Positions 19,869 through 44,145 of a DNA stretch of 64,000 bases are shown piece after piece. The stretch comes from Candidatus Eiseniibacteriota bacterium (GTDB lineage Bacteria; Eisenbacteria; RBG-16-71-46; CAZAMP01). A program made the translations under genes and the position numbers. The notes under the pieces were generated by a model. That model was given only the letters and a program-made list of their open reading frames with translations, searched no databases and was not told the DNA's origin. Position 1 is the stretch's first letter. Every line of letters starts with the position of its first letter. The stretch spans positions 2,368,001 through 2,432,000 of the forward strand of contig OZ245046.1 of NCBI GenBank assembly GCA_965224245.1, in the 5' to 3' direction.

Positions 19869-19884
19869 TGGCATGCGCGTTGCA
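19869..19884 (+). promoter_or_regulatory. Sigma54 -24/-12 promoter
   Basis: TGGCAT-GCGCG-TTGCA about 110 bp upstream of ATG 19992, with an A-rich tract upstream. Confidence 0.75.
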
Positions 19885-34401: not shown

Positions 34402-37400
34402 CTAACGGATCAAGGCCAGCTTTCCGACCTCGGAGTCGGCTCTCCCCCCGGTCGACGCGACCCGGTAGACGTACAGGCCGGGCGCCACCGGCGTCCCGGA
34501 CTCGTTCAGGCCATCCCAGCGCACGAGGTTGTCGACGCCACCATAGACGGTGCCGTCCAGGCGGCGGACCTCGATCCCGGCGGCATCGTAGATCGTGATC
34601 GTCACGCGTGAGACGTCCATCGCCGGCCGGTAGTGGAACGACGTGCCGTCCGGACGCGCCGGATTCGGCTGGCAGTATACGTCGGCGAGCCCGCTGGCCG
34701 CATCGGGCACGTCGGACTCGCTGGCCGCCGTGACCGCGTTTCGCGTGGGTCCGCGACGGAACATGCCCCACTCGTCGCCGCGCGGGCGGTACGGCGCATC
34801 CAGGTTCCAGAGCACCGCGCGCGTCCACAGGACCTCGTCGCGCGATCCGCGTCCCACGTCGAGCGCGAAGACGTCGGTGCGAGCGTCCCCGTCGAAGTCG
34901 CCCACCACCGGGACGGTGCCCGAGCCGACCTGGAGCGGCCACCCGCGAAGCACGCGCGCGTGGGCGTCGTCCCCGCGCAACCCCACCACGAGCCCGTCGC
35001 CGAAGACCGGGATCACGTCGAGACGCCCGTCCCCGGTCACGTCGGCCGCGAGCGGCCCCCGATGCGGCGGCGACAGGTCGTAGTACGTGTCCTGCGGGAC
35101 GTCGAACGTCCGCGGCCAGCCGGCGTCGACCACGCCGTTCAGGTTGATCACGAAGGCCGCGCCGCTGGTGCCGATGGCCAGCACCTCGGCGAAGCCGTCC
35201 GAGTCGACGTCGGCGATCGACACCTCGCTCCCGATCGGACCGCCCACGAACACCGGCCACCCCGCGCGCGGCGAGAGGTGTGAGACGTCACCGTCGTGCC
35301 CGAGCTCCCACGCGAACACGGTGCCGTCCTCGGCCACGGCGACCACGTCGGGGGTGTCGTCGCCGTCCAGATCCCCCCACACCGGCGAGCCGAAGCGCCG
35401 ATCGGGCTCGGTGGGCGCGCGCTCGCGCTGGTCGGTGTCGAGGTCCAGATCCACGAGTAGCATGCCGCCCAGGAGTCCCGCCTGCACGACGACCGGGATG
35501 GTGGCTGCGCCGCCCTGCGTGACCGGCGCCCCGGCGATCCGCCCGACCACCGGGGCCCCGGCGACCGGCCCGGCGATGCGGTACTCGCGGCCGGCGGCCG
35601 CATCGAGATCCCAGCGCCACATCGCGCCCTCGGTCGAATCGGCGCCCGCATCGCGGGAGCCCACGATCAGCTCCAGCGCGGCGTCGTCGTCGACGTCGGC
35701 GAGCACACCCTCCACGCGTCCCAGCGAGTCGACGGCGCCGGCGGGTCGCCGGCGCAGCGCGGTGGCGGTCATCTCGAAGACCGAGATGCCGCCGCGCTCG
35801 CCGATCGTCACGATCGACTGGCCGCCGTCCCCCAGCACGTCACCGACGAGCGGGGATCCGGCCGGCGTGTCGCCGATGTCGCGGTCTCCCCCGATCGCGC
35901 GTCCGTCGGTGTCGAGGACGGTCAGGAGCCCGCTCTCGCCCAGCACCACGAACTCGCTCTCGCGGTCGCCGTCGAGATCGGCCGCCAGCGGATGCGCGCC
36001 GGAGATGGGCTGATCCAGCGTGACCGGAAAGCCGTCGGCGAGCGTGGCCGCGGCGCCGTCGGGCTCCACGAACTCGACCCGGAACGACTGCGTCTCCCCG
36101 GGAGGCCCGATGTCGCTGATGAGCACGCGCCCCGGCGCGCCGAACGAGCTCTCGGAGGAGGGGTTCGTCCAGGGTCCGAACTCGGTGGCGGTGCCTGGAC
36201 GGAACGCGTCGTCCGGGGACCCGAACGACAGGATCGTGTAGGCGTCGAACTCCAGATCCTGGACCCCGTCGGCCTCCTCGAGGTCGATGCCGAGGTGATG
36301 CGGGTCGGCGTTGACCAGGTTGTAGTCGAACGCGAACCGCACCACGGAGTCGTCGATGTGCCAGACGTACAGCCCCTCGGACTCGCGGTACGTGGCGGTG
36401 GGGCTCGTCGGCAAGAGGTTCGGGGTGAAGTAGTCGAACTCGGAGCCTGCGAACGTGTCGCCCCAGAAGTTGAACGAGACGTCGTCCTCGCTTCGACGCG
36501 CCCAGTCGAACGTCCGGTTGTCGTTGGGATCGGGTTGTCGGGCCTCGACCAGGAAGTACTCGTCGGCCGAGATCGGGATGCGGACCGCGAGCGTGTCGGT
36601 GGCCGCGGGGCGATCGGTCTCGATCGGGGTCAGCGTGACCGCGCGCCCGCCCGGCGGCGTGTCGGCGATCGTGACCGGATCGAGCCATCCCGCGTAGTAG
36701 CGCGACCACACGCATGGCTCGCCGGGGACGAAGCCGTTGCCGTTCCACGTGCCGGCGGCCATCAGGCAGAACGCCCCGACGCCCTGCGACGGATCCCCAG
36801 GCGTGGTGTCGTACAGATCGGGCCAGCCGATCATCACGTGACCGAGCTCGTGCGTGAACACGCCCATGAGCCCGAACCGCCACCCGTCCTGTACCTCGTT
36901 CTCGGGGAGGAGCGCGGCCCCGCGCACGTAGACGGTGTCGCCCTCGGCGGTCAGATCGTCGGTCGGGATCCCGGGCACTTCGTAGCCGAGCGAGTCGTTC
37001 AGCACGAACGAGAGCAGATCGCCCGGGAAGAACGCGGACCAGATCTGTGACTTGCTGTCCCGCGCCACGTCGGACTCCTGACCGGAGCCCGAGTGCACGA
37101 CCGCGAAGCCGTTGTAGTCACCGAAGTCCACGTCGGCGTCGGCGCCCGCGACGGCGTCCCAGATCAGCTTCGTGCCGCGTTCGGAGAAGAGATCGTCGTC
37201 TCCGTAGTACGCCATCGGGGCGGGAAGCTTGACCACCGCGTCGTGAACCGTGGCCTCCATCACGTGCTGGCCGAACGACACGTCCTCGTAGTACTGGCGC
37301 ACGTGCTCGAGGTGACGATCGAAGTAGGCCACCAGGAGCTCGTCCTCGGGGATCGGGCCCGCGCCCGTCGTGTCGATGGCCAGCGTGTCGAAGGGCACGT

Positions 37401-37713
37401 CGGCGAACTCGGCCAGCAGGAAGAGTACGCGCGAGGTGTCGGACGGCGCGCCGACCCGGTCGGTGTCGTGATCGAAGTAGCCGAGCGCCAGCTCGGGCGC
37501 CGGCTCGCGAAAGACGGGCCAGTCGGTCTTCTGGGGCACCGGCGGCGCCATGCAGAAGATCGGCCCGCCCACCGGCCCGGCGTGGACGGCCGGTCGAGGT
37601 TCGGGCGCGTCGCCGGCGCGCGGAAGAGGTGTGATCCGGTCCGTGGACGTCAACCAGCCCAGCGCCGAGAGCACGGCGAGCGCCGACGTCAGTAACGTGC
37701 GTCGAAGCATCAT
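34402..37713 (-). CDS. Secreted M6 (immune inhibitor A-like) metalloprotease with FG-GAP/VCBS repeats and a FlgD-Ig-like C-terminal domain
   Basis: HSGSGQES, IWS, GVFTHELGH...PDLYD and LMAAGTWNG; repeated DLDGD/DVDSDG; C-terminus YCQPNP...IYDAAG...WDGLNESG.PVAPGLYVYRV. Confidence 0.88.
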   Translation of the reverse strand: MMLRRTLLTSALAVLSALGWLTSTDRITPLPRAGDAPEPRPAVHAGPVGGPIFCMAPPVPQKTDWPVFREPAPELALGYFDHDTDRVGAPSDTSRVLFLLAEFADVPFDTLAIDTTGAGPIPEDELLVAYFDRHLEHVRQYYEDVSFGQHVMEATVHDAVVKLPAPMAYYGDDDLFSERGTKLIWDAVAGADADVDFGDYNGFAVVHSGSGQESDVARDSKSQIWSAFFPGDLLSFVLNDSLGYEVPGIPTDDLTAEGDTVYVRGAALLPENEVQDGWRFGLMGVFTHELGHVMIGWPDLYDTTPGDPSQGVGAFCLMAAGTWNGNGFVPGEPCVWSRYYAGWLDPVTIADTPPGGRAVTLTPIETDRPAATDTLAVRIPISADEYFLVEARQPDPNDNRTFDWARRSEDDVSFNFWGDTFAGSEFDYFTPNLLPTSPTATYRESEGLYVWHIDDSVVRFAFDYNLVNADPHHLGIDLEEADGVQDLEFDAYTILSFGSPDDAFRPGTATEFGPWTNPSSESSFGAPGRVLISDIGPPGETQSFRVEFVEPDGAAATLADGFPVTLDQPISGAHPLAADLDGDRESEFVVLGESGLLTVLDTDGRAIGGDRDIGDTPAGSPLVGDVLGDGGQSIVTIGERGGISVFEMTATALRRRPAGAVDSLGRVEGVLADVDDDAALELIVGSRDAGADSTEGAMWRWDLDAAAGREYRIAGPVAGAPVVGRIAGAPVTQGGAATIPVVVQAGLLGGMLLVDLDLDTDQRERAPTEPDRRFGSPVWGDLDGDDTPDVVAVAEDGTVFAWELGHDGDVSHLSPRAGWPVFVGGPIGSEVSIADVDSDGFAEVLAIGTSGAAFVINLNGVVDAGWPRTFDVPQDTYYDLSPPHRGPLAADVTGDGRLDVIPVFGDGLVVGLRGDDAHARVLRGWPLQVGSGTVPVVGDFDGDARTDVFALDVGRGSRDEVLWTRAVLWNLDAPYRPRGDEWGMFRRGPTRNAVTAASESDVPDAASGLADVYCQPNPARPDGTSFHYRPAMDVSRVTITIYDAAGIEVRRLDGTVYGGVDNLVRWDGLNESGTPVAPGLYVYRVASTGGRADSEVGKLALIR

Positions 37714-37909: not shown

Positions 37910-39310
37910 TCAGCGACGGGACCGACCACCGGACGAGCGATCGCGCCCCGAGGACTTCGATCGCCCGCTGCGTCCGCGATCCCCGCTCTTGCGATCGTCC
38001 CGCCGCGGGGGCGTGGCCGACTTTCGCGGCTTGTCCCCCCGGGAGTTCCGGGGTCGATCGCCGACGTTTCGTGGACGATCGTCCCGCGACGGCTGCACGT
38101 CTCGACCGGAATCGTCGCGCTTGGGACGTGCTCCGCGATCCCGCTTGCCCCGCCCGGCATCCCGATCACGGTCGTCACGATCGCCGCGGTCCACGTCTCG
38201 TGCGCCGCGATCGCCGCGATCTCCCCGGTCGACGTTCCGGTCGCCCCGATCTCCCCGATCGGGCCGGGTTCCGCGGTCATCCCGGCCACGCGAGTCCAGA
38301 GCGCCGTCGCGATCGCGAACCGGCTTCGTGGTGCCCCGTACGTCGTGCGCGTCGGACACGTGGTCGCCGCGTGTCCACGAGGGATGGTCCTTGCGGTCCT
38401 TCAGATGATCGCGCTCCCTGGGCGACTTGCCTGCGAACGTCCGGATCAGACGATCCGGACGACCGTCCTCCCACCGATCCTTGGACGACCACTTGGTCTT
38501 GTAGGAGCGGTAGCGGTGCGGCGCGTTCGCGCGCTTCCAGTAGTAGAAGCGCGGCTGGCAGCGTGCCGGATAGAGCGCGTCGGTCCACCAGACGTCCACG
38601 CGCACGTCGAACACCCGGCACGCGTCCCGGTACGGGTCGTACCATCCGCCGTAATGACAGTCGTTGCACACGTAGCGCGGATAGTACCGGTGCGTGCGGA
38701 CGCCCCAGTACACGGTCCGGAAGCCCACCCGGTGCGGCGCGCACCCGCGGGGCAGAATCGAGGCCCGGAGCTCGGCGAACGCCAGGTACGGGTCGCCGGT
38801 GACGAACCCGAACTGCACGATGGGGCTGCGAGAGGCGCCGAGGTAGTACGGCCTGGTGCGGTGGCCGTGCGCGTAGAACCAGTCGGGAAAGTACGGGTCC
38901 AGCGGATAGGCGCACGCCAGCGCCTGCACGTACACCATGCCCTCCAGCGGTCCCACCTCGAGAAACGGCGCGTTGACCACGTACGACCGTCCGCCCCGGA
39001 GGTAGTGCGGGTCGTGCGGATGGTACGGGTAGATCAGATGCGCCATGCCGTCCACGTCGACGCCGTAGACGACGACGTACGAGTCGCGATGGGGACGGAC
39101 GGTCAGCTGGACCACGTCACCGGTGTCGTAGGTCGGATCCTCGCCGCCCGCGTCGACCCAGACGTCGACGCCGTACGCGTCGCCGTAGCCGCGGTCGTGA
39201 ACGGCATCCTGATAGCCGATGCCGGCCATCGCCGGCGCGGCGCCCGCCACGAGTGCGAGCGCGGCGGCCAGCGTGCCGGCCGCCCTCGAGAGCGTCGGAG
39301 TGCGCATCAT
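37910..39310 (-). CDS. Secreted DUF4384-like protein with a Tyr/Cys-rich middle and an Arg/Asp/Gly-rich low-complexity tail
   Basis: Signal peptide; VDVWVD..YDTGDVVQL...YVVVYGVDVDG..HLIYP resembles DUF4384; CNDCH; DRGDRGD repeats. Confidence 0.75.
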   Translation of the reverse strand: MMRTPTLSRAAGTLAAALALVAGAAPAMAGIGYQDAVHDRGYGDAYGVDVWVDAGGEDPTYDTGDVVQLTVRPHRDSYVVVYGVDVDGMAHLIYPYHPHDPHYLRGGRSYVVNAPFLEVGPLEGMVYVQALACAYPLDPYFPDWFYAHGHRTRPYYLGASRSPIVQFGFVTGDPYLAFAELRASILPRGCAPHRVGFRTVYWGVRTHRYYPRYVCNDCHYGGWYDPYRDACRVFDVRVDVWWTDALYPARCQPRFYYWKRANAPHRYRSYKTKWSSKDRWEDGRPDRLIRTFAGKSPRERDHLKDRKDHPSWTRGDHVSDAHDVRGTTKPVRDRDGALDSRGRDDRGTRPDRGDRGDRNVDRGDRGDRGARDVDRGDRDDRDRDAGRGKRDRGARPKRDDSGRDVQPSRDDRPRNVGDRPRNSRGDKPRKSATPPRRDDRKSGDRGRSGRSKSSGRDRSSGGRSRR

Positions 39311-40128
39311 GATGCACCTCCTCCGAAGTCGCGCAGCGGCCGCTTGTGCGTGGCCCCGCTCTTGCGCAGCTCGGGATTGCCGCGATCGGTCTGGTAGCCC
39401 CAGTCCAGCTCGATGAAGTCCTCGTCCAGATCGACGACGCGGACCTTCGCGTAGTTGTTGTCGCGCGTCCAGACCACGTAGACGTGCCCCACGATCGCCT
39501 CCACGATCCCCGACGGGCTCCAGCCCTCGTCGGGCGCCCAGGTGATCGCGTCGAAGGACGCGTAGCCTGCATCCTGGATGTCGGTCGCGTAGTCGGGAAC
39601 GGCCAGGTAGCCGACACCGTCGATCCAGTCGAAGTAGACGTCGGCGCGCTCGTCGTCCCAGCCGACTCGCTGCTCGCGCGAGAAGTCGAACGCCGAGTCC
39701 TCGGGGTAGTCGCCGTCGGCCTCTTCCAGCTGAAGGCCGAACCCCTCGGGCCGCGGCGTGTCGTAGATGATGCGGTTGTTGAGGTCGCTCTCGTTGCCGG
39801 CGTAGTCGATGGCGGTGACTCCGTAGTAGTACGTGTCTCCGTTGTCGAGGTCGTCGTGCACGAAGTCGGCGTCCTCGGTGAACCCGAGCAGGTCGTACGG
39901 CCCGTGCGGCTCGCGACTCACGTAGACGCGATAGCCGTCCAGGTCGGGCTCCTGGTTCTCGATCCAGTCCAGATAGACGACCCGGTCACCGGTCGTCGAC
40001 GTCACACCGACCGGCGGCAGCGGCGCGCGGCGGTCGGACTCGTGATGGTGGTCGGTACCGGTGTGATTGATCTCGCAGCCGAGCGCGAGCACCGCACCCA
40101 CGAGTGTCAGATGGAGTCGCGTGTTCAT
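39307..40128 (-). CDS. Lipoprotein with a fibronectin type III domain
   Basis: Lipobox LALGC; PLPPVGV..GDRVVYLDW...DLDGYRVY...TYYYGVTAIDYAGNESD; AAGGAGG RBS; ATGA overlap with the next gene. Confidence 0.85.
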   Translation of the reverse strand: MNTRLHLTLVGAVLALGCEINHTGTDHHHESDRRAPLPPVGVTSTTGDRVVYLDWIENQEPDLDGYRVYVSREPHGPYDLLGFTEDADFVHDDLDNGDTYYYGVTAIDYAGNESDLNNRIIYDTPRPEGFGLQLEEADGDYPEDSAFDFSREQRVGWDDERADVYFDWIDGVGYLAVPDYATDIQDAGYASFDAITWAPDEGWSPSGIVEAIVGHVYVVWTRDNNYAKVRVVDLDEDFIELDWGYQTDRGNPELRKSGATHKRPLRDFGGGAS

Positions 40129-40289
40129 CGGGGTGCCTCCTTTCGGGTTCGAAGAACGAAAGGATGCAGGGGCATCGTCGGCCTGCCTCCACCGTTGAAC
40201 GAAACCCTTACGCCATCACCGCCGAGGCGGCGATGGAGGGTGGGTAAGTGTTTCGCGAAATGCCCCTGCATCCTTGTGCCCGGGTGCAT

Positions 40290-40305
40290 TGCAGGGGGCA
40301 TGCCA
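40290..40305 (-). promoter_or_regulatory. Sigma54 -24/-12 promoter of the lipoprotein-DUF4384 operon
   Basis: Minus strand TGGCAT-GCCCC-CTGCA (GG-N10-GC); IHF-like TTCAATCGATTG at about 40350-40361. Confidence 0.65.
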
Positions 40306-40564
40306 GTGGGGCGAGAGCGGACTTCTCAGGCTTGCAACTAACTATGTGCCAATCGATTGAACGAAACGGGACTGCTCCGGGGACCGCTCCGGGAGAGGTG
40401 GGTCGAGCCTGGATCCGTGACCGTCGCGCCTCGGTGTCGCACCGCCGCCACAGGCGTGCCTGCAACACACCCACCCGCCGATACGCGAGCCACTACCGTG
40501 GACGACGAGGACGCGGGGCGCGGGCCGCAGGGCGTTCGGGCGAAGGGCGAGGAGCACGGAGGGC

Positions 40565-40817
40565 AAAAAACAAGGGACCCGATCCGCGGCGGCCACAGCC
40601 TGGACATCCCCCATCTCGCTGGTCATAACCGCCTGGATCAGATCCCTCGCAAATCGTGCCGAGGTATGTCGTGTCTGCGCCGAAGAATTCGAACCGGCCG
40701 GCCGCAACGAACATCTGGACGCTCAATCCGTCGCTCGCCGCGTGTAATCGGGGCCTGATCAGCGTTGACCGGCCGGTCCGAAGTCCATCTTCGGAGGTTC
40801 CCAGCTCCACAGACGTT
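40565..40817 (-). ncRNA. Putative sigma54-transcribed structured small RNA (about 250 nt)
   Basis: Starts about 12 nt after a sigma54 motif. A long rod pairs 40814-40808 with 40679-40673 and includes a 16-bp helix 40782-40767/40703-40688. A second long hairpin (40648-40572) ends in GTTTTTT. No convincing ORF with an RBS. Confidence 0.6.
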
Positions 40818-40827
40818 CTCTGATCAT

Positions 40828-40843
40828 TGCATCCGGCATGCCA
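40828..40843 (-). promoter_or_regulatory. Sigma54 -24/-12 promoter of the putative sRNA
   Basis: Minus strand TGGCAT-GCCGG-ATGCA (GG-N10-GC). Confidence 0.65.
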
Positions 40844-41047
40844 GGTGCGCCGATCGCGCCGAGACACATCGAACACAACGCTAACGCATTCGAAACGGGC
40901 ACGTTACACGTGGGTTTCATTCCGCTGCGAGGGGCTCGATCTCCGGCTCTTCCGGGCACGAATTCGCAAGGAAGTTTCCAGCCACATCTCGACGCCGGCA
41001 ACGTGCGCGTTTGCAGCGTCTTGGGTTGGAAAGATTCTTTAGAGGCG

Positions 41048-41064
41048 TATCAAGAGACTTGATA
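41048..41064. promoter_or_regulatory. 7-3-7 palindrome, candidate activator-binding site
   Basis: TATCAAG-AGA-CTTGATA in the AT-rich spacer about 205 bp upstream of the 40843 promoter. Confidence 0.4.
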
Positions 41065-41076
41065 GCTCCAGGGGGG

Positions 41077-44000
41077 TCAGTCGATGGCGAACGTGCGGAC
41101 CTTGGCCAGCAGGGTGGGATACGAGATGGCCAGACGCCTCGCCGCGGCGCTCTTGTTCCCACGGCACTCGCGGAGCGCGTCCACGATCATCTGCCGCTCG
41201 AGACGCTGCACGGCCGATCGCATCGAGCCGTTCGTGGCGCCGTTCGCGACGCCGGCCGGCCCGACCAGCTCGGGCGGCAGGTGCGCGACACCGACCGGCT
41301 CTCCCTCGTCGGCCAGGACGAGCATCCGGCGGACAGCCTTCTCCAGCTCGCGTACGTTGCCCGGCCATGCGTAGTCGTGGAGCAGTCGCATCACGTCGGG
41401 CGACAGGCGCGGCACGTCTCGTGACATCTCGGCCGAGAACGTCGCCATGAAGTGGTCCACGAGAGCGTCGATGTCCTGGCGCCGCTCTCGAAGCGGCGGG
41501 ATCACGATGGAGATGTCGTTGAGCCGGTAGTAGAGATCCTCCAGGAACGCGTTCTCCGCGATCAGCGTCTTCAGGTTGGCGTTCGTGGCGGACACGATCC
41601 GCACGTCGACGCGCTTCCAGCGCGTGGCCCCGACCGGTCGGATCTCGTGGTGATCGAGCACGTGCAAGAGCTTGGCCTGCACCGCGCGCGTCGTCTTGTC
41701 CACCTCGTCTAGGAACACGGTCCCGCCTTCGGCCTCTTCGAAGAGCCCGCGCTTCTCGCGTATCGCACCGGTGAACGCGCCCGCCATGTGCCCGAACAGC
41801 TCGCTCTCCAGGAGATGCTCGGGTATCGCGGCGCAGCTGATCGGTACGAACGGGGCCTCTCTTCGCCTGCCCGTATCGTGCACCGCGCGCGCGATCAGGC
41901 CCTTGCCGGTGCCGGTCTCGCCGCGGACGAGCACGCTCGCCGGGCTGTCGGACACCTTGCGTACGGTCTGGAGCAGCGCCTCGAACGCCGGGCTGGCCGA
42001 CACGATCGGCCGCGTGAGGCGGCTCGCGTCGATGCCGCTCTCCAGCCGGGCGCGCTCGGAGAGCATCTGCGTGCGTTCGAGCGCCAGCGCCGAGATCGAC
42101 GCCAGCTCGGCCAGGAGCGCGATCAGCTTCAGATCGGCCTGTCGGTAGGCGCCCACCACGTGCTGCGCGCGGCGGTCCACGTAGAGGAGCCCCCAGATGT
42201 CCTGGGGCAGGCACAGCGGCGCGATCGCCAGGCCGGACACGTCCTCGACGTCCCCAACGTCGGCGTCGCCGGGAGCGCGGATCGCCGGGTACCCCGACGC
42301 CATCGACGCGGCGACCGCCGGCTGGATGCGCCCGAGCAGCTCGCTGGCCTGCGCGGCGGTCGTCCCGATCGCACCCACCACCGTCAGGTCCTCGGTGGTC
42401 GGCCCCTGAGCCAGAAACGCGCGATCGGAGCTGGTGCGGCGAAGCACCATTCGCAGGAGGGCATCGACGGCGCTCTCCGGGCTTTCGGACGTCTTCAGGA
42501 GCCGATGGAGCTCGCGCGTCGGGCTGAGGATGTCCGAGCCCTCGAGCGACGTCCGCGCGCGCTGGTCGAGCCGAGCCTTCAGACGCATCTGCTCCTCGAG
42601 CAGCGGGCTCTCCTCTGAGGCCTCGACGTATCGTGCGGCCGACCGGAGGAGGTTCTCGGCATCGTCGAGGGGACCGGTCCGGATGCGGTCCTCGACCGCC
42701 GCCAGCGCCACCTCGGCGAGGTGTCCGGGGACGTCGAGCGTCTCGAAGATCGCGCGCGCCTCCGTCAGGTGATGCTGGATCTCCGGATGAGCGTCGGTCG
42801 ACTCGCGGGCCACGTCGAGGCACACGCGCGCCATCGACAGGTGCGTGCGGCCGACCTCATACCGGGCGCCGAGCTTGCGGAACGTCTCGAGAACCGCGCC
42901 CAGCATCGCGTGGCCGTCCTCGCAACGTCCCGCGCGGGCCCGGCACAGACCCAGCACGCGCCGGGCGGCGGCCGCCTCGGTCAGGTCTCCGAGGCTCTCG
43001 GCGATCTCGATCGTGCGCTCGGCCGTCTCGGTGGCCGCGTCCAGATCCCCCAGTGCGAAGTGGGCTTCGGCCAGGCGCCGGCCGATCTCCGAGACAAGAT
43101 CGCCCGCCGGAGCCAGCTCTCGAGCGTCGGCGAGCGCTACGAGCAGCCGATCACGCCCGCGCTCGGGCTGGCCGGTGGCCACCTCGAGCTCGCCGCGGAA
43201 CTCTTCGACGAGGATGCGCTCGCGCGTGTAGCCGTTGGCCTCGGCGATCGCGTCCGCCTCCTCCAGGGTGGCGCGGGCGGCGCCGAACCGCCGCGACCGC
43301 ATGTCGAGGACGCCACGCGCGATCAGCGACTTGACCAGTCGACCGCGATGATCGATCTCGCGCGCGATCTGCGTGGCGCGCTCGAGCTGGCGCCGCGCCT
43401 CGGGCCAGTCTCCCAGACGCGAGTGAATGATGCCGAGATTGAGGCAGATCGAGGCCTTTCGCCCGTAGTCGCCCACGTCCTCGAGTATGTCGAGCGCACG
43501 GTGCAGGAACGATAGGGCATCGCGAAGGTGGTTCGACTGCTTCCGATTGAGTCCGAGGTTGTTGTACGCGTGCGCGATACCGCGGCGATCTCCGACCCGC
43601 TCGTACAGACCCAGCGCCAGATCGAACGACTGCTCGGCATCGCCGGTTCGCCCCTGTCGCTCGAGGGCGTGACCGATCGCCAGGTAGAGTCGCGCCTGGA
43701 ATCGCACGACCTCGGAGCTGGTCGTCTCCCGCAGGAGACTGAGCGCCTCGCGTGCCGCGTCGATGGCCGCCTGGTACTGGCCCGACATGGATCCCACGAT
43801 GGCATGGCGGCCGATGATGCGGGCACGGGTGACGTCGTCTGGATGAGGGCCGGCGAAGGCCTCGGCCTCCGCGATCGCGGCGCGCGCCATCCCGAGCTCG
43901 CCCCGGGAGGCGTGGCAATCGACGATGCGCAGCACGACGTCGACGCCGTCGGGGTTCGGGCCCTCGGGGGCGCCCAGCGGCTCGCGAGCGGCCAGGTAGT

Positions 44001-44145
44001 GGCCCAGCGCCTCGCCGTGATTGTCGGCGGACCGGTGGAGATCACCCAGACGCAGGAGGTGATCGAACGTGCTGGGGTCGACGGCACGCTCGCGCGTCGC
44101 TCCCTCGCCCGCCGCTTCGGTTGGGAAACCCCTCCCGACATCCAT
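41077..44145 (-). CDS. Sigma54 enhancer-binding protein with N-terminal TPR repeats, a GAF-like domain, AAA+ and HTH (1022 aa)
   Basis: About 500 aa of TPR-like helices (AHAYNNLG, ASICLNLGIIH, YEVGRTHL); GAF-like APL...WGLLYVD; motifs GETGTGK, ESELFGH, GAFTGA, FLDEVD, DLYYRL and WPGNVREL; HTH. Confidence 0.93.
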   Translation of the reverse strand: MDVGRGFPTEAAGEGATRERAVDPSTFDHLLRLGDLHRSADNHGEALGHYLAAREPLGAPEGPNPDGVDVVLRIVDCHASRGELGMARAAIAEAEAFAGPHPDDVTRARIIGRHAIVGSMSGQYQAAIDAAREALSLLRETTSSEVVRFQARLYLAIGHALERQGRTGDAEQSFDLALGLYERVGDRRGIAHAYNNLGLNRKQSNHLRDALSFLHRALDILEDVGDYGRKASICLNLGIIHSRLGDWPEARRQLERATQIAREIDHRGRLVKSLIARGVLDMRSRRFGAARATLEEADAIAEANGYTRERILVEEFRGELEVATGQPERGRDRLLVALADARELAPAGDLVSEIGRRLAEAHFALGDLDAATETAERTIEIAESLGDLTEAAAARRVLGLCRARAGRCEDGHAMLGAVLETFRKLGARYEVGRTHLSMARVCLDVARESTDAHPEIQHHLTEARAIFETLDVPGHLAEVALAAVEDRIRTGPLDDAENLLRSAARYVEASEESPLLEEQMRLKARLDQRARTSLEGSDILSPTRELHRLLKTSESPESAVDALLRMVLRRTSSDRAFLAQGPTTEDLTVVGAIGTTAAQASELLGRIQPAVAASMASGYPAIRAPGDADVGDVEDVSGLAIAPLCLPQDIWGLLYVDRRAQHVVGAYRQADLKLIALLAELASISALALERTQMLSERARLESGIDASRLTRPIVSASPAFEALLQTVRKVSDSPASVLVRGETGTGKGLIARAVHDTGRRREAPFVPISCAAIPEHLLESELFGHMAGAFTGAIREKRGLFEEAEGGTVFLDEVDKTTRAVQAKLLHVLDHHEIRPVGATRWKRVDVRIVSATNANLKTLIAENAFLEDLYYRLNDISIVIPPLRERRQDIDALVDHFMATFSAEMSRDVPRLSPDVMRLLHDYAWPGNVRELEKAVRRMLVLADEGEPVGVAHLPPELVGPAGVANGATNGSMRSAVQRLERQMIVDALRECRGNKSAAARRLAISYPTLLAKVRTFAID

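Follow-up and report, generated by a model that had tools for sequence, protein, structure and literature searches.

Terminated regulatory RNAs whose sigma-54 promoters are activated by an enhancer-binding protein include Qrr1-4 (activated by LuxO), GlmY (GlrR) and CrcZ (CbrB), all of them proteobacterial RNAs that act together with Hfq or else sequester RapZ or Hfq/Crc. A closer parallel to the locus described here is Pxr of Myxococcus xanthus and other myxobacteria, the gene of which is reported to lie directly downstream of the sigma-54 activator gene nla19 and apparently has its own sigma-54 promoter and stable stem-loops (PMC5568312). The present locus lies on the minus strand of a 64,000-nt stretch of a Candidatus Eiseniibacteriota genome (GCA_965224245.1, contig OZ245046.1, positions 2,368,001 to 2,432,000), hereafter the window, in whose numbering coordinates are given. 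There, next to a gene encoding a sigma-54 activator, an RNA of about 253 nt (40565-40817) with a sigma-54 promoter of its own is predicted. With a probability of roughly 0.6, we read it as a single-copy non-coding RNA gene, linked to the activator and independently terminated, whose product acts in trans.

Both systems share the same gene layout and the same presumed logic. The RNAs themselves differ, Pxr being described as about 108 nt long, composed of three stem-loops and restricted to myxobacteria, whereas the Eisenbacteria RNA spans 230-460 nt and is modular; likewise, the Pxr activator is described as a response regulator, whereas the protein encoded here has a TPR N-terminus and no receiver domain among its Pfam matches. 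A sequence relationship was not detected, in that no Rfam family was matched and Pxr was compared by description only, and because length and architecture differ Pxr is treated as an analogue and not as a member of the same family. Recurrence of this layout in an unrelated lineage suggests convergent use of an "activator gene, then sigma-54 sRNA (small RNA)" cassette. Qrr1-4, GlmY and CrcZ share no homology with the RNA, and a search of the present genome, 97% complete, detected no Hfq. The RNA is, then, a new family without an Rfam match, of a kind that is already known: an sRNA made by way of sigma-54 and an enhancer-binding protein.

We know of no cultured member of Candidatus Eisenbacteria, and in the literature on Eisenbacteria that deals with sigma-54 or small RNA we found no description of an RNA regulator, CsrA alone being treated. 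The locus is a first candidate riboregulator for the phylum, with a defined promoter, a probable activator and a secreted or surface-protein operon that is probably co-regulated.

The RNA gene

On the minus strand, the end of the 1022-aa activator gene (41077) is followed, in this order, by the promoter P1, a 5' hairpin, a rod, a 77-nt hairpin and the U-tract UUGUUUUUUG. P1 (TGGCATGCCGGATGCA, 40828-40843) shows the GG-N10-GC spacing of sigma-54 promoters, from which a transcription start is predicted at about 40817, 12 nt past the C of the -12 GC at 40829. At the other end, the intrinsic terminator read from the sequence consists of the stem GAGGGAUCUGAUCC/GGAUCGGGUCCCUU, which is the outer stem of the 77-nt hairpin, and of UUGUUUUUUG immediately behind it (40564-40573). 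A simple terminator scan gave no flag at this position because its rule admits loops of 3-8 nt only. Both the dedicated sigma-54 promoter and the terminator proposed in the first-pass annotation, which had been made from the letters of the window alone, are therefore present. The pattern TGGCAYN6TGCA occurs three times in the window against 0.11 expected, a count reached in none of 100 shuffles, and rpoN, encoding sigma-54, is present in the genome (6.94 Mb, 68.6% G+C, 97% complete).

The minimum free energy (MFE) structure computed by RNAfold for 40560-40820 of the minus strand has -123 kcal/mol (z -3.77), a value equalled in none of 200 shuffles, compared with -97.7 kcal/mol (z -1.39, matched by 17 of 200 shuffles) for the plus strand in the same test; the excess stability of the minus strand stems from G-U pairs, in agreement with the earlier suggestion of selection at the RNA level. 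For the exact 253-nt RNA (40565-40817) the folding energy is -116.5 kcal/mol. The MFE structure is a near-continuous rod helix interrupted by small loops, with a separate 3' hairpin, and all six helices named beforehand occur both in the minus-strand sequence and in this structure.

None of the open reading frames (ORFs) overlapping the RNA has a Pfam match. Since the most conserved segment of the RNA is invariant at all codon positions and the reading frame downstream of it is unconserved, the gene is considered non-coding; it occurs once in this genome. Rfam, searched over the whole window at gathering thresholds, returned two tRNAs only, and at E<=10 nothing was returned between 40200 and 41200, as anticipated for a stand-alone structured RNA outside the annotated families. 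Among 12 homologous loci, Rfam gave just two matches, both below threshold: ncS01 (RF02865) to the 3' domain of locus L022 (37.6 bits, gathering score 58) and BjrC68 (RF02353) to that of locus L008 (25.2 bits, gathering score 39). In each case the likeness is a partial alignment of the 3' domain in which identity lies mainly in the terminator hairpin and outside the invariant core, and the window copy is unmatched; membership of either family was rejected.

Distribution and architecture of the RNA family

A similarity search with the whole RNA in 41 related genomes revealed only about 40 shared nucleotides, which form the apical loop of the 3' hairpin. The 18-mer TGGGGGATGTCCAGGCTG of this loop (40596-40613) was found, with at most one mismatch, in 58 of the 206 genomes of the class and in 33 of its 83 genera, mostly once per genome, and the reversed pattern had no match in any class genome. 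A looser pattern (GGAGGGGGGGACCTCCA, two mismatches; 188 of 206 genomes) was discarded, as its reversed control also matched many genomes, and its tally is not used. Core matches in the 185,579 species genomes scanned number at least 116, and 26 of those listed have the context of the RNA. Titles were shown for 80 of the 116 listed matches; the 17 matches with both a title and RNA context comprise 11 from Candidatus Eisenbacteria/Eiseniibacteriota, 5 unlabelled and one labelled Methylomirabilota. The remaining 90 listed matches are scattered in unrelated phyla and lack RNA context. Locus L032, from an unpublished genome (G083), is included in the core, linkage and alignment counts given here and below, and no claim is drawn from it by itself.

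A typical copy consists of a sigma-54 promoter (TGGCAY-N5-NTGC), the 5' hairpin GGAGGGGGGGACCUCC at 28-35 nt from the promoter start, a rod, the 3' domain and the terminator, with a predicted length of about 230 nt (family f16) to about 460 nt (f17). The 5' hairpin, overlooked in the first-pass annotation, is the most conserved 5' element and has a stem that resembles a Shine-Dalgarno/anti-Shine-Dalgarno pair. In the window it reads GGAG-CUGGGAA-CCUCC (40793-40808, minus strand), a somewhat divergent version recognized by sequence and by comparison, which competes with the base of the rod in the MFE fold. The rod, delimited by folding, by an inverted-repeat search and by comparison with the same-family genome G001, covers about 142 nt (40673-40814, minus strand) and is built on a 15-bp core pairing 40768-40782 with 40688-40702. 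Rods of different families occupy the same place and are unrelated in sequence, as illustrated by the 16-bp rod of G004. Taken singly, each arm of the rod is a palindrome (window, GACCGGCCGGTC; G001, CCGATCGG; G004, GACCCGGGTC; f5, TACCCGGGTA); such palindromes are not needed for RNA pairing and could represent the site of a dimeric protein on double-stranded RNA or on DNA.

The 3' domain, supported by folding, by the alignment of 35 homologues and by covariation, is the 77-nt hairpin (40572-40648, minus strand), made of an outer stem (40635-40648 with 40572-40585) and an inner stem (40624-40633 with 40588-40597). Its loop follows the scheme ACCA-N4-7-UGGGGGAUGUCCAGG, closed by CAG(A)CC/GGCUG, and contains the invariant core UGGGGGAUGUCCAGGCUG (40596-40613, minus strand), defined by the class-wide search and the alignment, within which a UGGG/UCCA pairing closing a GGAUG loop could form.

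The 5' and 3' parts are separable among families, so the RNA is modular, and the window copy has both parts. In f8, f5 and f13 (one locus each) the promoter, 5' hairpin and rod occur without the 3' core; the U-tract is also present in the f8 and f5 loci. In f7 and f14, the 3' domain occurs alone, downstream of an ordinary AAA ATPase gene (PF00004) and without activator or P1. At seven such loci (L020-L023, L025-L027) neither promoter nor 5' hairpin was found, 38 nt of upstream sequence only being available for L025. The 5' hairpin and the rod are shared by every sampled family with the activator-p273 arrangement described below, and the 3' domain is optional and reused elsewhere; it occurs in f1, f4, f6, f7, f9, f14, f16 and f17 and is lacking in f5, f8, f13 and f15. 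A pairing of the 5' CCUCC with a 3' GGGGG, proposed by RNAalifold for 10 full-length f16 RNAs, was not retained: both of its sides are invariant and so offer no covariation, and the 5' hairpin persists in families devoid of the 3' domain. Because the RNA is modular, the binding partner of each conserved element can be sought separately and cleanly, and the family would be suited to RNA family libraries, and through them to metagenome annotation.

Two groups of loci carry further conserved stretches. In the f7 copies (L020-L023), one is found about 100-330 nt upstream of the core (GGUGGAGGUGCA ... GAGCGCAGGC). The f9 RNAs (L033-L035, L154) are longer, with an extra conserved domain between the 5' hairpin and the 3' domain (CUGGGCUAGCCGG ... 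GGUCGAGGGUACGAGCCCCGUCU ... ACCGGCUAGCUUGGAG) and a further conserved hairpin region past the 3' domain (... UUGCACACCUGAG ... GCGCACACC).

Structural covariation

Covariation, which the first-pass annotation had asked for across homologues, was found in both the 3' domain and the rod. When the 3' domains of 35 homologues are aligned by sequence with MAFFT, 14 columns show no variation, and 6 of the 8 pairs of the outer stem show double changes, amounting to 48 cells against 15.7 +/- 4.5 in shuffles (none of 500 as high) and against 2-25 cells when the partner strand is slid; as the sequences are related the shuffle counts overstate significance, and the slid controls are the fairer comparison. 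Outer and inner stems together, in a single register, give 123 cells against 67.3 in shuffles (0/500). Only 59.5% of the inner-stem cells pair in the single-register model, because registers differ between families. Intermediates with G-U pairs are common among the covarying positions.

For the rod, the comparison was made with one genome of the same family (G001), in which all 15 pairs of the core are kept despite three double and two single changes. In G001, counterparts are missing for the two outer helices of the rod (GTCTGTG/CGCAGAC and CCGAAGA/TCTTCGG), the partner segment being deleted there, and these helices are taken to be lineage-specific.

Association with the activator and the p273 operon

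The gene upstream of the RNA (41077-44145, minus strand; Pfam, NCBIfam) encodes a 1022-aa protein with N-terminal TPR repeats (TPR_12, E-value 1.2e-27), an AAA+ Sigma54_activat domain (residues 714-880, 1.1e-62), an AAA lid and a Fis-type helix-turn-helix (HTH_8, 1.2e-09). The combination of TPR repeats, a sigma-54-interaction AAA+ domain and a Fis-type helix-turn-helix identifies it as an enhancer-binding activator. Of 29 oriented loci, 20 have an activator homologue on the same strand whose end lies 400-800 nt upstream of the core, and all 20 show both the P1-like promoter, at the spacing given above, and the 5' hairpin (variant in L007 and L018; in L031 and L032 promoter and hairpin were found with a wider search range). 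Among five genomes chosen for lacking the core, four have the activator-p273 arrangement with promoter and 5' hairpin in between, and the fifth (f15) has neither activator nor RNA upstream of p273. The earlier proposal that the RNA is the output of the adjacent activator gains from this linkage (20/20 linked loci and 4/4 loci of other families), and we infer from gene order that the activator would control P1. A 13-nt inverted repeat with 92% complementarity, detected by repeat search (AAACGGGCACGTT / AACGTGCGCGTTT, 40893-40905 and 41000-41012), lies 50-170 bp upstream of P1 and is a candidate activator-binding site (40893-41012).

A repeat search and a pattern count also revealed a second sigma-54 promoter, P2 (TGGCATGCCCCCTGCA, 40290-40305, minus strand), which shares 85% identity with P1 over 20 nt and would drive the conserved operon that begins with p273 (39307-40128, minus strand). 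The existence of this second, similar promoter indicates that the activator probably has two outputs. The product of p273, a lipoprotein-like protein of 273 aa, has no Pfam or NCBIfam match and is recognized by its tblastn conservation: in 22 of 29 loci, those of f14 among them, a homologue is encoded on the same strand 270-570 nt downstream of the RNA. A sigma-54-like site precedes p273 in 10 of these 22 loci, and the 10 f16 loci have no second sigma-54 promoter before p273. Past p273, the operon encodes a DUF4384 protein and then, as its last gene (34402-37713, minus strand), a relative of M6-like metalloproteases with FG-GAP repeats and a type IX secretion C-terminal (FlgD-Ig-like) domain. 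The lipoprotein-like p273 and the type IX-domain protease suggest that the products of the regulon are secreted or surface-exposed. In recurrent gene order, the TPR-AAA+ activator gene, the RNA and the p273 surface-protein operon form a conserved three-part module.

Between P2 and p273 lies a structured 5' leader (40126-40280, minus strand; -71.9 kcal/mol, z -4.92), formed by a long closing stem with a C-rich internal loop (CCACCCU) and a conserved GGAGGCAGGC. Similar p273 leaders were recognized by eye in G001 and G004, and the leader has no Rfam match.

Possible transcripts in public metatranscriptomes

Parts of the window occur in sixteen public runs; in four of them 94-100% of its sampled words are present, and the assembly may derive from these. 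Among sediment metatranscriptomes, two that belong to different studies yielded one contig of 196 nt each, lying wholly on 40608-40802 (or 40801), that is, on the body of the RNA, with six differing letters (about 97% identity) and no loose ends. Neither RNA run has a contig on 40223-40591 or on 40838-41165, which is not evidence of silence there, and a DNA-type run is continuous over 40100-41300. One of the RNA runs (X10) also has a contig identical to 40100-40210, at the start of p273. The stop at 40608 falls inside the invariant core and is probably a branch of the assembly graph, not a true end. The two contigs are a weak hint of a discrete transcript.

Mode of action and alternative explanations

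According to the proposed mechanism, the activator, once switched on, would drive sigma-54 RNA polymerase at P1 and P2, producing the RNA from the former and the mRNA of the p273 operon from the latter, and the RNA would be the riboregulatory arm of a small two-output regulon. Its action, in trans and independent of Hfq, would rely on two G-rich apical elements that are conserved, namely the 5' hairpin loop and the loop GAUGGGGGAUGUCC of the 3' domain. The likeliest mechanism would be pairing with C/U-rich single-stranded stretches of mRNAs, the sole concrete candidate being the C-rich internal loop of the p273 leader, where 8 bp could form between CCUCCAUC and the GAUGGGGG stretch of the RNA. 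Base pairing in trans is put forward tentatively as the mode of action.

Several observations weigh against this view. The target searches, which covered this genome and the neighbouring p273 leader, gave a duplex z around 0 (-2.57 to +1.42) for the RNA loop against the p273 leader in 22 loci, no better than shuffles. Genome-wide, 6799 ORF starts bearing a Shine-Dalgarno sequence provided no coherent target set, the top match being a spurious ORF. Nowhere in the genome is there a complement of at least 16 of 19 nt, and complements of 11-14 nt lie within coding sequence; the genomic excess of CCTGGACATCC probably originates from Leu-Asp-Ile codons. The near-invariance of the 18-nt loop, with its 14 fixed columns, is more typical of a protein-binding or ribonucleoprotein (RNP) site than of an sRNA seed. 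The occurrence of the 3' module in f7 and f14 without activator, P1 or 5' hairpin means that part of the RNA works outside the regulon, and the dependence of P1 on the activator is deduced from synteny. Expression, finally, is seen as assembled contigs that are strandless, lack true ends, derive from a relative with about 97% identity and may reflect DNA carry-over. Because neither a target nor a partner was found, the regulatory role itself is something we infer.

A rival reading is a protein-binding RNA, be it a sponge or an RNP scaffold, in which the 3' loop and the 5' hairpin would bind a conserved protein or the 30S subunit and titrate this partner when the activator is on. We regard such a role as possible, if rather doubtful. 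It would account for the columns that stay invariant across many families and for the UGGG/UCCA-closed GGAUG loop that the core is able to form, and it agrees with the lack of a base-pairing target and of a detectable Hfq. CsrA is the textbook partner for a consensus-like GGAUGU in a loop, and it is encoded in 179 of the 206 class genomes, this one included. Like the CsrB/RsmZ sponges, the RNA is structured and terminated and has GGA within a conserved apical loop. Unlike them, it shows no enrichment of GGA (8 copies, of which 4 are unpaired in the fold, compared with 5.2 +/- 2.0 in shuffles; p 0.13), and its distribution does not track that of CsrA. The core is present in 6 of 8 f7 genomes and CsrA in none of the 8; G004 and G039 carry the core and have no CsrA match (completeness 86% and 93%); and f8 and f15 have CsrA and not the core. 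On these grounds, a CsrA sponge was rejected as the preferred explanation. Few functional CsrA homologues are predicted for this phylum in a 2026 NAR paper (PMC13443453). Beyond CsrA, no candidate partner is at hand.

A more specific version of protein binding, which we consider unlikely, is a modular RNP instead of a seed-pairing sRNA. Here the 3' domain, with its loop of some 18 nt that hardly varies across the phylum and its separate occurrence behind AAA ATPase genes, would be an independent RNA domain recognized by the ribosome or a conserved protein, and the 5' hairpin would mimic the Shine-Dalgarno/anti-Shine-Dalgarno helix. Should it hold, a sigma-54 activator would control a global translation or RNA-metabolism factor by means of an RNA decoy of an undescribed kind.

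Equally improbable in our estimate is a cis-acting leader, the P1 transcript being the 5' part of the p273 mRNA and the 3' domain a conditional terminator (attenuator- or riboswitch-like). Such a leader fits the same-strand p273 found behind the RNA in 22 of 29 loci, and in the 10 f16 loci, where P2 has no counterpart, read-through from P1 could matter. Against it stand the separate sigma-54 promoter between the RNA and p273 in 10 of the 22 loci, including the window, and the 270-570 nt that separate the terminator from the p273 start. The contigs of the RNA libraries fall on the RNA body and, in X10, on the p273 start, and not on the 40223-40591 spacer; no riboswitch or leader of Rfam matches the locus, its homologues or the p273 leader; and in f7 the 3' module has no p273 within 1.5 kb.

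The palindromic arms of the rod in the window, G001 and G004 also allow the element to be seen as DNA, namely as protein-binding sites (for instance activator sites serving P2) whose RNA would be functionless. This is very improbable, given that the complementarity reaches beyond the palindromes, that G-U pairs render the minus strand much stabler than the plus strand and are common among covarying pairs, that the promoter-to-hairpin distance is fixed, that U-tracts occur on one strand only and that contigs from RNA libraries lie on the element. A divergent 6S-like RNA binding the RNA polymerase holoenzyme, offered as the alternative in the first-pass annotation, can practically be set aside: 6S RNA (RF00013), a long rod with a large central bubble mimicking an open promoter, shares with this RNA its rod-like shape and similar length (~250 nt), whereas here the rod has no large central bubble, the promoter is of the sigma-54 type, no 6S model matches the locus at E<=10, and the canonical 6S RNA is encoded elsewhere in the genome (G000:C1:1389857-1390043, plus strand; 66.2 bits against a cut-off of 46.4).

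Additional observations

A listed 58-aa ORF (40125-40301, minus strand) is considered spurious because its start lies inside P2 (TGGCATG) and it overlaps the p273 leader; homologues were not found outside the window locus. In one genome, a 30-nt match to the core (93%; L004, G021:C14, ~1948116-1948144) is situated within the 3' end of the release-factor-2 gene prfB (...HHEMGDVQAVMDG). It was taken as a coincidence, being confined to a single genome, and the closest resemblance in G000 falls outside prfB. Most f16 loci (L007-L017) have a GTGTAGTAG-like motif 60-150 nt before p273, possibly a different type of promoter. The third sigma-54-type match of the window, TGGCATGCGCGTTGCA, lies on the plus strand at 19869-19884.

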